Positions 23,270 to 32,211 of a DNA stretch of 32,211 nucleotides are shown in pieces. The notes under the pieces were generated by a model. It was not told where the DNA came from. It did not search any database and saw nothing but the letters and a program-made list of their open reading frames with translations. The DNA lies in NCBI GenBank assembly GCA_964359835.1, contig CAYHUT010000001.1, positions 1 through 32,211 of the forward strand. Reading direction: 5' to 3'. The stretch is from Candidatus Woesearchaeota archaeon (lineage in GTDB: Archaea; Nanobdellota; Nanobdellia; SCGC-AAA011-G17; GW2011-AR18). Positions within the stretch are counted from its first letter, which is position 1. Every line of letters starts with the position of its first letter. Position numbers and translations under genes: made by a program.

Positions 23270-23320
23270 ATATTCCTCCTCGGAATACCTCTATATAAAG
23301 CTTACTAGTCTCTAAAATAA

Positions 23321-23407
23321 TCATTTAATCACTTAATCAATACTTAATCAATCAGAAATAGATGATTAAAACAACAAAATTATATAAAACCTTAATCAAT
23401 CAATCAC
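23321..23407. repeat. Cluster of TTAATCA(A/C) motifs around the promoter of the 23410 gene
   Basis: TTAATCAC (23325-23332), TTAATCAAT (23333-23341) and TTAATCAATCA (23344-23354) lie upstream of the TATA-like box TTATATAAAA (23380-23389). TTAATCAATCAATCAC lies between that box and the ATG. Confidence 0.5.
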
Positions 23408-23409
23408 AT

Positions 23410-24168
23410 ATGTCTCAAAAGCCTCAAATTTCAAGTGTAAAAGATAATATTTTGGCACTAGATAACGAAATTTCAGCCTTAAAGGAGTTAATGTTAAGGC
23501 AGAACAAGGTAATTTTACAACTTTCCGAGGAGATTCTCAAACTTTCAAAGGAACTGGAGGAGTTCAAAAAAAACCCAAAACCGCCTATTTCCATAGGAAG
23601 TGAAGGGGTTAATCAATCAATCAATCACTTAATCAATCAATCACTAAGCACTCAATCACTTAATCACATGTTTGAAACACCTGATTTGGAGCAATATTCC
23701 GAAATTGAAGAATCCACATTCACCGTCGAGAAACCAATAGAAAAAGAGTTTCAAGAATTTCCAAAAGAGGCAATAATTGAAAAACAGTTAAACTTGGGCA
23801 CTATCACTTCAAAAAAGCCAATTGATCAAGAAATATCATTCTTCAAAACAAATCTAAACAAGCTTTTCTCCTCACTTTCTAAACAAGAGCTAAAAGTGTT
23901 CTTGACATTATATCAACTCGACGAGGAAACAACAAATATATTTTATTTAGATCTGGCTTTGAAATTATCCCTCTCAGAACCCTGTATTCGGGGGTATATT
24001 AGCGGTTTAATAAGAAAAAGTTTACCTATAATTCGAAAAAAACTCAATAATAAGCGTACAATCCTCACAATATCGAAAGACTTTAAGTCTTTAGGTTTAA
24101 AACAAAAGCTGATTTCACTTTATTATGAATCCGATCCAAAACAAACAACATTATTTGATCGTATCTAA
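23410..24168 (+). CDS. Hypothetical DNA-binding protein: N-terminal coiled coil, low-complexity linker, C-terminal winged-helix/HTH-like domain
   Basis: 252 aa from ATG 23410, chosen because the TATA-like box is centred ~26 nt upstream; the track ORF starts at 23362. Heptad-like ILALDNEISALKELMLRQNKVILQLSEEILKLSKELEEF. C-terminal LSKQELKVFLTLYQL...LSEPCIRGYISGLIRKSLPII. Confidence 0.6.
   Translation: MSQKPQISSVKDNILALDNEISALKELMLRQNKVILQLSEEILKLSKELEEFKKNPKPPISIGSEGVNQSINHLINQSLSTQSLNHMFETPDLEQYSEIEESTFTVEKPIEKEFQEFPKEAIIEKQLNLGTITSKKPIDQEISFFKTNLNKLFSSLSKQELKVFLTLYQLDEETTNIFYLDLALKLSLSEPCIRGYISGLIRKSLPIIRKKLNNKRTILTISKDFKSLGLKQKLISLYYESDPKQTTLFDRI
23609..23670 (+). repeat. In-frame (AATC)n / TTAATCA repeat tract inside the 23410-24168 CDS
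   Basis: TTAATCAATCAATCAATCAC TTAATCAATCAATCAC TAAGCACTCAATCAC TTAATCAC, encoding VNQSINHLINQSLSTQSLNH. Same motif as in the promoter cluster. Confidence 0.7.
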
Positions 24169-24526
24169 CTCTCACTTTTCTTAAAAGAAGGCTAATTTAC
24201 CTTCCCTTTTCAATAAATATGTTTACTTTTTTAGTTTTATATACGCTTTCTCTTATAATCCTTATATTTTCCTTATTCTATTAAATATATATCTATTAAT
24301 CAATATTTTATTCCTTTTTTTACATTAAGTCTACTTTTTTTCACTATTTATTCACAGAATCTTTCCAAAACTCTTAAAAAAACCTTAAAATGAACTCTCA
24401 CTTTACCTAAACAAAGTCCAAATTAACCTCAGTTTACATACTATATGCTCGTTTATCCTCATATATGTCTTTATTATCTATCTCAAATACCCTCACAAGG
24501 CCTAAAATAAGTCCAATTTAGCCTCC
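24169..24526. repeat. Three imperfect ~37-nt direct repeats (iteron-like) in a long ORF-free region
   Basis: Copies at 24169-24205, 24395-24430 and 24490-24526. Plus-strand consensus is roughly CYCTCAC...CCTAAA.AAGTCCAA.TTA.CCTC. Weaker copies start near 24545 and 24604. Confidence 0.55.
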
Positions 24527-24757
24527 TTTTTCTTTCTTTAGATTATCTCAAACACCTATTTTTCAATAAAAAATAACCTCTCATCTGCTTCTATCTTGAT
24601 CCAATCTCACTATTTTTAACACCTTTTTATCTACCCATTTAGGCATTTTATTTTATACAATTTTTTAAATTTTTTTTACAACTATTTTATTTATTTTTTT
24701 CAACACTTTTTAAATTTTTTACAATAATCTCAATAGGATTCATAAAAAATGTGTTTA

Positions 24758-24832
24758 CAGACACGTCTACGACGTGTCGTAGACGTCTACATAAACTTAT
24801 ACGACACTTCTTAGACGTCTACGACACGTACA
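24758..24832. promoter_or_regulatory. Cluster of GC-rich palindromes upstream of the 24900 gene (operator array or origin-like hairpins)
   Basis: ACGTCTACGAC-GT-GTCGTAGACGT (24763-24786, 11-bp arms). GTAGACGTCTAC (24779-24790, perfect 12-bp palindrome). TAGACGTCTA (24812-24821). ACGACAC repeated at 24801 and 24821. Confidence 0.6.
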
Positions 24833-24869
24833 TAAAATACTAGCTTTTTACAAAAAAAAAATAAAAAAC

Positions 24870-24877
24870 TATATAAA
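24870..24877 (+). promoter_or_regulatory. TATA-like box for the 24900 gene (leaderless geometry)
   Basis: TATATAAA centred ~27 nt upstream of ATG 24900. The same TATATAAACC / GGTTTATATA box recurs at 26131-26140 and twice in 32136-32192. Confidence 0.45.
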
Positions 24878-24899
24878 CCCCCTAGAATCTAATAATATT

Positions 24900-30460: not shown

Positions 30461-30606
30461 ATTTTTAATATACCATAAACCAATATAAACATTTATTCTC
30501 TAAAAAGGTTATTTAGAACAATATAATAAAATTTTTAAGGATTAATATAATTCCAAGCAATAGCTGCCCAAAAATATAATTTTCCAGCTTAGCAAAGAAG
30601 CATTTT

Positions 30607-30792
30607 CTAAAAAGAAACACCGCAATAACCCCGTTCTTTTATTAATTTCTCCCTCTCAAGATACATAAAACCAGGAATAACTAAAGCGAAACCGATTCTT
30701 GTCAAGGCTTCTCTTCTTGCATATTTTTCCTCACTTTTATCAGCAATAGTTTCATTATTATTTTGGACTATATCTTCCAAATCATCTGCCAT
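30607..30792 (-). CDS. Hypothetical 61-aa protein with an acidic N-terminus and one hydrophobic helix
   Basis: Start taken at Met22 of the track ORF (ATG at 30792): MADDLEDIVQNNNE...RIGFALVIPGFMYL.... It overlaps the upstream gene's 3' end by 11 nt. Confidence 0.4.
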   Translation of the reverse strand: MADDLEDIVQNNNETIADKSEEKYARREALTRIGFALVIPGFMYLEREKLIKERGYCGVSF

Positions 30793-31360
30793 AAAATCCC
30801 TCGACCCTAAATCCAAGTTCATCAGCTTTATTTTGAACATATTCTTCCAGACCAATATTTAATTTTCTTGCAGCTCTTTCAGCAAATTTCCTGCTGTTAA
30901 TTCCAACAGTTTTTTTCATAATAGAATTGATTCCTCTTTCACCAATAATCTTGGAATTATTAACATCATATACAATTGCCTGCACAGTAAGCGGAATACC
31001 AAAAAAATAATTATTAATTGTGGGTTCAATCCCCATTTCCCTCATAGGTCTTATCCTATCTAAAGGTGTAAACATCATCAATTTTTCCGTGCTTGAAAAT
31101 AGATAATTTCCATTTTTGTCCTGTTTATTATACACCCACCAACCATAAGATTTTATATTTTCATTAGGTTTTTCAACAAAAAATCTTAAACTTAATTCAG
31201 GTTTTTTATTGCCATAAAGTTCGCTTATTATTGTCTTATAAACAAAACCACCAATCATCCAAAGTCTGCCTTGAGAGTTACTCTTAACAACATGTACACT
31301 TTCTTCAAAATCCTTATTATCCTTTGTCCATTTTAAGAATGCATTAGTAACCTCATCCAT
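30782..31360 (-). CDS. Hypothetical protein with a weak nucleotidyltransferase-like (pol-beta fold) N-terminal pattern, catalytic Asp pair not evident
   Basis: 192 aa. LWMIGGFVYKTIISELYGNKKPELSLRFFV resembles the hGG-x(n)-DxD strand-turn-helix region of NTases, but the DxD position reads S-L-R. A TTATAAAG box lies ~25 nt upstream on the minus strand. Confidence 0.45.
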   Translation of the reverse strand: MDEVTNAFLKWTKDNKDFEESVHVVKSNSQGRLWMIGGFVYKTIISELYGNKKPELSLRFFVEKPNENIKSYGWWVYNKQDKNGNYLFSSTEKLMMFTPLDRIRPMREMGIEPTINNYFFGIPLTVQAIVYDVNNSKIIGERGINSIMKKTVGINSRKFAERAARKLNIGLEEYVQNKADELGFRVEGFYGR

Positions 31361-31438
31361 GCCTATTCAGAAAAACAATGCTTTATAATAATTTATCTAC
31401 AAGAAAAGATATTTAAATAATATCATAATCATCTAATT

Positions 31439-31747
31439 ATGCATTCAGGAAAAAAATCATTAAAAGATGAGATTAAGAGAATGAAAGCTTCTATGAAGGA
31501 TTTGCAAAAGCCAGAAAAAGGAGTGATCAAAGGTGGGAAATTAGTAATAAAAACAAAAAGAAAATTAAGTCCCAATCTATGTATGGCTTGCAAAAAAGAT
31601 GCTGGTAAAAATTTTGTTTTCATTTACAAAACTAATCACGAATTAAAAGGAAAAATGTGCACAATATGCCACATAGAAATGCAGGAAGAAAAACGCAAAA
31701 AAGAAAATGAGAAAATTATGAACGAAGAATTTAAACCAATCAAATAA
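31439..31747 (+). CDS. Small basic zinc-ribbon protein
   Basis: 102 aa, Lys-rich. CMAC...x26...CTIC. ATTTAAAT box centred ~25 nt upstream of the ATG. Confidence 0.55.
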   Translation: MHSGKKSLKDEIKRMKASMKDLQKPEKGVIKGGKLVIKTKRKLSPNLCMACKKDAGKNFVFIYKTNHELKGKMCTICHIEMQEEKRKKENEKIMNEEFKPIK

Positions 31748-32113
31748 CTATTTTCTTTTCTTACTGGCTTGCAAGGCTATAATCTGTTCAAGAATTTTTT
31801 TTCTTCTGTCTTCATCTTCTACTAATTTATTAATTAAACCATCTAATACTGCCTCTTTATTAGACACATTAGTATTAAAGACAGCAGCTATTTGTTTTGC
31901 GATTTTTAAATCTGACTCTTCCAAAGAAAACTCTTGTGCTAATAATTTTGATTCAACTTCTTCAATCCTTGCATTTATTCCCACAACTTTAATACATTCC
32001 ATACAATATATTGGAATGCCTGGGGTAGTAAGGAAATTAGCATAGAATTTTTTACCACATTTGCTGCAAATTGTTGGATATTTCTCTTGTGTTCTTTTTG
32101 CAAATGGTGTCAT
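31748..32113 (-). CDS. CxxC-x17-CxxC zinc-ribbon domain protein with a helical C-terminal tail
   Basis: 121 aa. CSKC, then exactly 17 residues (GKKFYANFLTTPGIPIY), then CMEC. The IPIYC context is typical of the CxxC-x17-CxxC domain. Confidence 0.6.
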   Translation of the reverse strand: MTPFAKRTQEKYPTICSKCGKKFYANFLTTPGIPIYCMECIKVVGINARIEEVESKLLAQEFSLEESDLKIAKQIAAVFNTNVSNKEAVLDGLINKLVEDEDRRKKILEQIIALQASKKRK

Positions 32114-32135
32114 ATATCCTTCCTGAAAATCTTAG

Positions 32136-32192
32136 TATATAAACCTATCTTTTTAATGATACTGTATAGTTAACGTCAGATAGGTTTATATA
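32136..32192. promoter_or_regulatory. 15-bp perfect inverted repeat, each arm carrying a TATA-like box: likely divergent promoter pair
   Basis: TATATAAACCTATCT (32136-32150) / AGATAGGTTTATATA (32178-32192), with a 27-nt spacer. The left arm lies ~25-30 nt upstream of the minus-strand ATG at 32113. The right arm points toward a gene beyond the window end. Confidence 0.5.
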
Positions 32193-32211
32193 GTATTGTC
32201 TTCTTATTTTT

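Follow-up and report, generated by a model that had tools for sequence, protein, structure and literature searches.

A recombinase-bearing block beside argS in a Candidatus Woesearchaeota archaeon: probably a conserved origin-proximal neighbourhood with a gene-linked Xer/dif-like module

Does a tyrosine recombinase in the company of small DNA-binding proteins and ORFans (open reading frames, ORFs, without recognizable relatives) mark an integrated element in an archaeal genome, or can such a group of genes belong to the chromosome itself? The question is raised by positions 23,280 to 32,211 of a contig from a Candidatus Woesearchaeota archaeon (GenBank assembly GCA_964359835.1, contig CAYHUT010000001.1). 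The window, meaning the whole stretch of DNA that was analysed, is this complete contig of 32,211 bp (C1), part of a metagenome-assembled genome (MAG) of 997 kb in 144 contigs, 81% complete and with 31% G+C (G000; G, C and L numbers are used here for genomes, contigs and loci). Its left two thirds hold the large and small subunits of PolD, Cdc6, Lon and the arginyl-tRNA synthetase (ArgRS, gene argS). The block that follows has the contig end as its right limit, and any sequence to the right of 32,211 lies beyond the assembly piece. The original prediction took this block for accessory DNA, inferring an integrated archaeal plasmid or provirus that starts after argS. The comparisons reported here lead to a different answer: the block is probably a chromosomal, origin-proximal neighbourhood conserved in Woesearchaeales, with a gene-linked Xer/dif-like module, and not a plasmid or provirus.

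The first line of evidence is gene order. The 13 block proteins were concatenated and searched against 60 relatives, the weaker ones then being searched singly, and all window proteins were compared by tblastn with 36 genome loci and 32 metagenome loci. The recurrent order is PolD-L – PolD-S – Cdc6 – an AT-rich stretch – PRC-barrel – Lon – p193 – ArgRS – p140 – CC1 – CC2, continuing past CC2 with 0-3 kb of other DNA, the Xer-type recombinase, in some cases p181, a further 1-5 kb, and p102 (CC1 and CC2 are coiled-coil proteins; coordinates are given in Table 1). This order recurs in over 60 related loci, which come from many genera of the organism's own family, from other families of Woesearchaeales and from metagenome contigs; examples include G002, G004, G009, G013, G016, G018, G022, G027, G031, G036, G038, G042, G046, G057 and G060, as well as named RIFCSP and UBA Woesearchaeota MAGs. 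The relative genomes compared are of other genera, the closest ArgRS being 55% identical to that of the window, and the named genomes with recombinase homologues are all Candidatus Woesearchaeota or Nanoarchaeia, i.e. DPANN archaea. Homologues of p140 (31-53% identity) adjoin ArgRS in 27 loci, CC1 occupies the same position in 21 or more loci at 30-45% identity, and homologues of p102 lie 1-5 kb past Xer on the contig that carries the ArgRS cluster (G016, G004, G014, G001, G003, G013, G007, G002 and metagenome loci).

p140, CC1, CC2, the recombinase and p102 are core synteny. The check proposed with the original prediction, whether argS is followed by this block in relatives, accordingly turns against it: a mobile element starting after argS fails as an explanation because the gene order is conserved, and no flanking repeats accompany it. 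The description of the block as accessory holds in part. Accessory and hypervariable DNA is found in the inner part, from CC2 to p102 (below); the backbone genes are core, and the variable DNA does not begin after argS.

The gap between cdc6 and the PRC-barrel gene is about 1 kb long with a G+C content of 18%. Within it, beside cdc6, an inverted pair of sequences resembling origin recognition boxes (ORB) encloses about 570 bp in which AT content is extremely high. From its composition and these boxes, the region is probably the replication origin (oriC).

The recombinase that the original prediction had placed in the block is present, with its catalytic residues intact (R140, K164/K167, H224-x-x-R227, H250, Y259). 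The protein resembles Xer along its entire length, and its best solved relative is XerA of Pyrococcus abyssi (PDB 4a8e, E 1e-26, residues 35-274). Proteins of the same kind, here called type A, are found at the same locus in relatives and are 55-81% identical to the window's enzyme; this identity is mostly 69-75% within the family (60% for G018) and 59-64% in other families.

Between the TATA box of the recombinase gene (27252-27259) and its ATG, ending 24 nt before the latter, lies a perfect 11-7-11 inverted repeat (Table 1). This 29-bp sequence is unique in the 997-kb, 81%-complete assembly, with no other copy at up to 6/29 mismatches. A comparable site occurs 0-2 kb upstream of the type-A gene in 11 relatives (G016, G011, G010, G007, G038, G042, G002, G018, G027, G057 and G005) and in metagenome loci; in a pattern search no relative genome has the site at more than one place, against 5 control matches in 61 genomes. 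Its distance from the gene is 0-130 nt in G016, G010, G007, G042, G038, G027, L071 and L092, and 0.5-1.8 kb in G002, G018, G011 and G057. The sequences are ATTAGATTATA-TACTTTC-TATAATCGAAT in G016, ATTAAATTATA-TACTATC-TATAATTTAAT in G011, ATTAAATTAAA-TACCTTC-TTTAATTTAAT in G010, ATTTGATTATA-TACCTTC-TATAATCAAAT in G007 and ATTGCATAATA-GAAGTAG-TATTATGCAAT in G038. Changes in one arm are mirrored in the opposite arm so that the palindrome is kept (e.g. in G038 and G010), and the centre is conserved as TACNWTC across genera, its orientation relative to the gene flipping in some genomes. Covarying arms around a conserved, flipping centre are what the core site of a tyrosine recombinase should show, in contrast to a plain operator. 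Proximity to the putative origin is likewise seen in relatives.

Some genomes have at this locus a recombinase with no more than about 30% identity to that of the window; these enzymes are here called type B. Their genes also carry dif-like sites at the gene start, so that a gene-linked site is the rule at the locus. The clearest is perfect (in G009, Table 1), and imperfect ones overlap the start codon in G036, G004 and G013. In the window's own genome, a search for the type-B dif-like site gives chance-level 3-mismatch matches only. Besides that of G009 (L056), gene-start sites resembling dif or loxP were observed with type-B genes in L062, L038 and L057, and at position 16731 of L041. In G030 the sequence TTCATATAA-TATTCA-TTATGCGCA, which we take to resemble bacterial dif, lies about 6 kb downstream of ArgRS.

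Table 1. Positions of the features discussed in the text; coordinates are those of the window unless another locus is named.
Feature	Position	Strand	Description
ORB-like inverted pair	17141-17163 and 17730-17752		TTCGTGTGGAAC and GTCCACACGAAC
p140	22847-23269	-	140 aa, conserved, function unassigned by searches; always beside ArgRS, just left of the block
CC1	23362-24168	+	N-terminal coiled coil, (I/L)NQS low-complexity linker, C-terminal winged helix
Repeat units	24167-24542	+	three same-strand units of ~55 nt headed by AACTCTCACTTT
CC1-CC2 spacer	24169-24899		731 bp, repeat-rich, free of ORFs of at least 40 aa
Palindrome array	24753-24829		GC-containing, directly before CC2 promoter; perfect 18-nt arms (24772-24789, 24812-24829)
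CC2 TATA box	24870-24879	+	AAAAACTATATAAACC, 21 nt before ATG; reverse complement of GGTTTATATA
CC2	24900-25577	+	coiled coil with helix at 4-88; disordered, acidic linker; winged helix-turn-helix at 121-198, similar to ArsR/MarR
Islet 1	25574-26683	-	p174 (25574-26098), p179 (26144-26683); fast-evolving, lineage-restricted
Islet 1 promoter box	26131-26140		33 nt before p174 start
Frameshifted small gene	26892-27147	+	stop-to-stop frames 26880-26972 and 26926-27147
dif-like site	27263-27291		perfect inverted repeat ATTAAATTATA-GATGGTA-TATAATTTAAT
Xer-like tyrosine recombinase, type A	27315-28160	+	281 aa; Pfam Phage_integrase, E 6.6e-34
p181	28145-28690	+	overlaps Xer gene by 16 nt
Islet 2	28809-31360	-	p403 (28809-30020), p119 (30101-30460), p82 (30607-30855), p192 (30782-31360)
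p102	31439-31747	+	102-aa zinc ribbon, CxxC...CxxC (Cys 48, 51, 74, 77); right-hand backbone gene
p121	31748-32113	-	treble-clef/zinc ribbon (Cys 16, 19, 37, 40), C-terminal coiled coil
Divergent promoter pair	32136-32192		each half AGATAGGTTTATATA
Type-B site of G009	L056 (G009:C3), ~7850-7880, -46		perfect ACCTTCGTATAA-TGTACC-TTATACGAAGGT

Several observations weigh against the reading of the block as a conserved chromosomal neighbourhood built around an Xer/dif-like module. The best NCBIfam model for the enzyme, XerA_Arch, scores 141 bits, under its cut-off of 220. The site has a 7-bp centre and inner arms TTATA/TATAA, as against ATAA/TTAT in canonical dif, and it lies about 9.5-10 kb from the putative origin, not at the terminus. 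In G011 and G002 a direct repeat of the half-site stands directly before the ATG, the full inverted site being 0.5-1.8 kb upstream. Type A is a divergent, tight clade (one group with 100/100 support) joined by a very long branch to the commoner type B, which is diverse and older-looking, and a PF00589 census finds an additional type-B gene elsewhere in the type-A genomes G002, G027, G057 and G042, with type A only in G038, G016 and G018. Finally, the interval between CC2 and p102 can be replaced wholesale between congeners, Xer subtype included: in the congeneric genomes G004 and G016 the DNA between p193 and CC2 and that beyond p102 are both colinear (about 72% nucleotide identity), but the roughly 4 kb separating CC2 from p102 cannot be aligned and hold type-B Xer in G004 and type-A in G016. 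Horizontal exchange of this sub-block is therefore implied.

How much room is left for an integrated archaeal plasmid or provirus extending from argS to the contig end, with the tyrosine recombinase as its integrase and the right att site beyond the contig? The inventory is element-like (recombinase, winged helix-turn-helix (wHTH) proteins, zinc ribbons, ORFans, many separate promoters), the contig ends before a right flank is reached, the G+C content of the block is 28.5% vs 31.4% for the genome, and among genome windows of equal size its tetranucleotide distance ranks at the 89th percentile, mildly atypical without being an outlier. Comparable inventories, in which a tyrosine recombinase is accompanied by ORFans and by small genes of the wHTH and zinc-finger kinds, characterize integrated elements of the pNOB8, SNJ2 and SSV types (Badel et al., 2021, PMC8371274); the present locus differs from these in having no tRNA/att target, no replication or structural genes, no block polymorphism and a positionally conserved recombinase. 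p140, CC1, CC2, Xer and p102 stand in the same order beside ArgRS, Lon and Cdc6 in the more than 60 loci, among which no empty site for the block was found. Pfam, NCBIfam and PHROGs searches of the block proteins revealed no element hallmark genes (replication, capsid, packaging, conjugation), the Pfam and NCBIfam matches being to the recombinase, with weak ones to wHTH and zinc-finger families; 10 block proteins had no PHROG match, and IMG/VR scans with the four supposed ORFans p403, p192, p179 and p174 found no relatives, so that the recommended virus-database comparison lends the original prediction no support. As that prediction had itself observed, the window contains no tRNA gene (ARAGORN) and 22,800-32,211 no convincing direct repeats that could serve as attL/attR, although an outer repeat might lie past the contig end; a recurring promoter box, taken as a mark of the block, occurs genome-wide (see below). 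Altogether such an element is highly improbable.

A narrower proposal, which is better matched to the replacement in G004 and G016, is that only the stretch from CC2 to p102 (25578-31438, the whole of the hypervariable part) is a mobile cassette or a derivative of one, comparable to an integron or to an integrative mobile element exploiting Xer (IMEX), with recombinase, site and cargo, that inserts into, or is traded by way of, one fixed place in the chromosome. Beyond the swapped Xer subtypes, it would account for the lack of an Xer in this interval of G014, for the small patchy families that surround Xer in relatives (in that comparison the islet genes of the window were all singletons, and those of islet 2 are ORFan or patchy), for the long stem and shallow crown of the type-A clade, and for the flipping of the site-Xer segment relative to CC2 among genomes. 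The interval, however, varies in content among relatives and is almost never empty; no second or degenerate 29-bp site, as an IMEX would have, was found in the assembly at up to 6/29 mismatches, and no flanking repeats or site copies were found around either islet. Islet 1 is no recent insertion. p174 and p179 have no homologue in the 60 relatives, but a closer relative on a Logan contig (L079) has ArgRS, p140 (88% identity), CC1 (62%), CC2 (81%), p174 (30%) and p179 (42%) in the same order, and the islet is also present in L081 (87% nucleotide identity) and L080 (79%); vertical inheritance together with CC2 is suggested by this recurrence. Type-A identity, moreover, roughly tracks GTDB family membership, and homologous recombination via the conserved flanks could equally have replaced the interval, so a mobile cassette is rather unlikely. 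More doubtful still is the view that the 11-7-11 repeat is an operator only, for Xer or for CC1/CC2, with the recombination site, or another function such as inversion, located elsewhere. The position between TATA box and start codon would suit an operator, many relatives keep the half-site TAAATTATA alone a few nucleotides before the ATG (with the direct repeats of G011 and G002 at this place), and at the start of type-B genes, too, a half-site (AAGTTCGYATAAT) is retained. The conserved TACNWTC centre and its varying orientation are nevertheless traits of a crossover region and not of an operator, a single full site is still found 0.5-1.8 kb upstream in G011, G002 and G018, and core sites of tyrosine recombinases have just this geometry of 11-bp arms and a 6-8-bp centre (PMC2958812, PMC5357621). 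One sequence could in any case play both roles.

If the block is a chromosomal neighbourhood with an Xer/dif-like module, a simple mechanism can be proposed. An Xer homodimer would bind the two 11-bp arms and exchange strands across the 7-bp centre, and strand exchange would resolve dimers or catenanes of the chromosome. Bound to its site between TATA box and start codon, Xer would probably also repress its own gene. The accessory look of the block arises from fast-turnover, lineage-specific small genes around the Xer/site module. The recombination and regulatory functions of the locus are what we infer from these arrangements; as several type-A genomes also hold type B elsewhere, either enzyme may be the one that resolves dimers.

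Known Xer systems provide partial parallels. The closest is XerA/dif of Thermococcales (Cortez et al., 2010, PMC2958812), also a single archaeal Xer of about 280 aa with one palindromic site per chromosome and 11-bp arms; dif of P. abyssi, ATTGGATATAA-TCGGCC-TTATATCTAAA (PMC2958812), shares the outer arm ATT(R)RAT, as in ATTGGATATAA. There, however, dif lies apart from xerA, 120-140 degrees from oriC, with a 6-bp centre, whereas here the site is gene-adjacent, about 10 kb from the putative origin, with a 7-bp centre and other inner arms, and the protein is below the NCBIfam XerA cut-off. XerS/difSL and XerH/difH (Castillo et al., 2017, PMC5357621) are likewise single-recombinase systems, and in XerS/difSL the gene is immediately beside the site, forming one module as here (PMC5357621). 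They differ in being bacterial, FtsK-dependent and terminus-located, with proteins of about 355 aa, and the difSL centre is 11 bp; the window's Xer has no specific sequence kinship to either (XerH E 3e-10, XerS 58 bits). IMEX and dif-adjacent regions such as CTX and the gonococcal genomic island (GGI; PMC5357621) resemble the locus in the presence of lineage-specific genes beside an Xer site, with content swapped between close relatives. An IMEX has dif at one boundary and a degenerate dif at the other; in the present assembly no second copy of the site was found, and the islets are not identified as elements.

A second conserved part of the neighbourhood is the pair CC1/CC2 with the DNA between them. 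The two coiled-coil plus winged-helix proteins and the repeat-rich non-coding region of about 730 bp described in the original prediction are all present. CC1 and CC2 are paralogues (hhalign 97%, E 1.2e-10) with an N-terminal SFxxVKxDIxxL motif and a C-terminal wHTH in common. In an AlphaFold2 (AF2) model of CC2, for which the alignment has 23 members, the mean predicted local distance difference test score (pLDDT) is 79 and the wHTH is confident; Foldseek matches it best, though weakly throughout (E about 6e-3), to TubR, ArsR/SmtB, AspA and Sso10a, and the CC2 profile finds AspA at the top of the PDB (E 1e-3).

The spacer between the two genes is long in 19 of 19 relatives measured (175-617 bp). 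In the window AACTCTCACTTT heads units at 24167 and 24393 and, in degenerate form, at 24488, the first overlapping the CC1 stop codon; the exact 12-mer has two copies in the genome, both in this spacer. Each of the 19 relatives has 1-4 same-strand copies, again with the first overlapping the CC1 stop codon: 32 same-strand and 0 opposite copies in 7.9 kb of spacer, compared with 61 copies, both strands counted together, over 262 kb of DNA outside it, a 35-fold enrichment with complete strand bias. Relatives also have lineage-specific short repeats or palindromes of their own directly upstream of the CC2 promoter, where the window has the palindrome array, which looks operator-like. Since the repeats are same-strand and conserved among relatives, the spacer is better regarded as a conserved field of cis-elements than as plasmid iterons. 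The AACTCTCACTTT array may be a protein-binding array or an RNA; Rfam at the gathering threshold finds no RNA family in the window, the 731-bp spacer included. A G-depleted strand composition is also common to the CC1-CC2 spacers of relatives (e.g. L049, L056, L061).

Most likely CC1 and CC2 would bind the repeats and palindromes of the spacer, either for autoregulation or in a centromere-like complex. The wHTH matches of CC2, and repeat or palindrome arrays directly upstream of its gene, recall TubR with tubC and AspA of pNOB8. The CC2 matches are, however, weak (E 1e-3 to 6e-3) and equally include generic ArsR/MarR regulators, the putative DNA binders CC1 and CC2 differ in their long N-terminal coiled coil, and the locus has no gene for a partner NTPase.

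The promoter box that had been thought to recur in the block, GGTTTATATA, does have exactly four copies in the window, all of them in the block (24870, 26131, 32136 and 32183; 0.13 expected). It is not special to the block: 25 copies are found genome-wide on many contigs, most of them in the form (A)AAGGTTTATATA and about 20-35 nt ahead of a start codon, and because of this number and placement it is the genome-wide promoter consensus of the organism, comprising the B recognition element (BRE) and TATA box. The mRNAs made from such promoters are probably leaderless or have short leaders. Of the 25 box copies 4 lie in the block, as do 9 of 299 genome-wide TTTATATA cores, a richness attributable to its being made up of many transcription units of one gene each. 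In relatives, GAAAAcTATAAAAa stands equally far from the CC2 start. A leftward promoter at 24870 for a non-coding RNA in the spacer was considered and rejected as the primary reading, the relatives having plus-strand GAAAAcTATAAAAa. In the divergent pair near the contig end, one half serves p121, 23 nt before its start, and the other is directed off the contig. A GC-rich element, CGCGCACCCC..GCCACGTGTCCAGCTGTCCAACC, was seen between two TATA-like boxes about 60-100 nt upstream of Xer in L072, L074, L076 and L077, and inverted in L036 (G027) and L070; this element upstream of some type-A genes has a GACACGT core, common to it and the palindromes that precede CC2 in the window.

Among the smaller genes, p181 accompanies Xer in some relatives: homologues adjoin it in G038, G007, G046 and L092; a metagenome scan with p181 found nothing. 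Its invariant residues are D86, E100, C101, C104 and K108, and its confident AF2 model (pLDDT 80, predicted template modelling score (pTM) 0.74) has Cas4 SSO0001, AdnAB, SfsA, NucS and a tRNA endonuclease as best Foldseek matches, all weak (E at least 5e-3). Cas4, AdnAB, SfsA and NucS are nucleases of the PD-(D/E)xK type, and from this model p181 is a probable PD-(D/E)xK-fold protein. p140 has no match in Pfam, NCBIfam or PDB-profile searches, and the idea of a SecB-like fold, prompted by its sequence pattern, was dropped for want of support from the same three sources. The small zinc-ribbon proteins that had been anticipated are p102 and p121, whose genes abut; p121 matches Pfam zf_Tbcl_2 (E 7.9e-5), and its matches in the 60 relatives are weak and confined to the zinc-finger part. 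The predicted overlapping or abutting genes are seen here, in the 4-nt overlap of the convergent CC2 and p174 genes, and in that of Xer and p181. No block protein has a paralogue in its own genome (tblastn, E 1e-3).

In islet 2, p403 corresponds to the membrane protein with an ectodomain of the original prediction: a hydrophobic segment lies at the N-terminus and a second at about 205-223, with four Cys between them. It has no relative among 5.8 billion proteins. Apart from p192 in G013 (31%), no homologues of islet 2 proteins were found in the 60 relatives, and none in the 32 metagenome loci. p192 itself is no ORFan, belonging to a large unnamed family of about 190 aa that has no Pfam model (392 cluster representatives at E <=1e-3, 242 at <=1e-10). 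Between islet 1 and Xer, the frameshifted small gene reads MANENQKEYMVVYKTIYNTGTRLFNT and then, in another frame, ...DIHYFKAIDDQQARG...EIRDLELPKK; at 79% nucleotide identity, L080 has an intact 83-aa ORF in its place, and the split reflects either decay into a pseudogene or a mistake in the assembly.

Other observations concern the genome at large. ArgRS (21191-22834) shows a bimodal identity to relatives, about 50-55% or about 33-41%; as these classes are not aligned with GTDB families, and G019 has two ArgRS genes, two ArgRS lineages in Woesearchaeales or horizontal replacement of ArgRS are suggested. Two further tyrosine recombinase genes of G000 are cut by contig ends (C25:9690-10342 and C106:31-3826). 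The one on C25 appears to have its N-terminal domain missing or in a separate ORF; the one on C106 has as neighbours an ATPase-like ORF of 533 aa and two more large, uncharacterised ORFs, and this group is possibly a defence or mobile island. The end of C9 (about 16090-16144) and the start of C65 (1-60) have in common a sequence of about 55 nt, TATAAAGGCAAAACACAGAGGTTTATATACTTATCCC..., so that these are probably overlapping contigs, or the assembly was broken at a repeat. On C20 (11168-11407, minus strand), a 98-aa PRC-barrel-like gene lies 95 nt from the contig end and shares 67% identity with the gene next after the p102 region of G004; the rightward continuation of C1 may be C20. The contig ends do not overlap, and no join is claimed.

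What would the locus mean for these organisms? Relative to known systems, it presents an archaeal Xer with a gene-adjacent, near-origin site and with two enzyme/site flavours alternating at one locus; full-text literature searches for DPANN with XerA and for Woesearchaeota with tyrosine recombinase returned nothing relevant. A more far-reaching idea, speculative and on present evidence improbable though worth stating, is that Woesearchaeales keep a chromosome-maintenance locus about 10 kb from oriC, in which CC1/CC2 and the AACTCTCACTTT repeats form a centromere-like or origin-organising module and the Xer/site pair a hotspot for cassette swapping. If this were true, the Xer site would be a hotspot that captures lineage-specific cassettes and even the recombinase/site pair (type A vs type B), and archaea would have an origin-proximal, gene-linked Xer platform.

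The 29-bp candidate site and its enzyme are assayable in vitro as was done for P. abyssi XerA, and the two site/enzyme flavours at one locus permit specificity-swap experiments. The conserved coiled-coil pair, putative DNA binders with candidate binding arrays beside the origin, offers a further entry point. For annotation the locus is a caution: where a DPANN genome shows a tyrosine recombinase amid small DNA-binding proteins and ORFans, a provirus is not the necessary conclusion. For the biology of the group, an origin-proximal, gene-linked site would contrast with the terminus-located dif of Thermococcales, and the locus provides a testable handle on how chromosomes may be handled in uncultivated, FtsK-less, ultra-small archaea.

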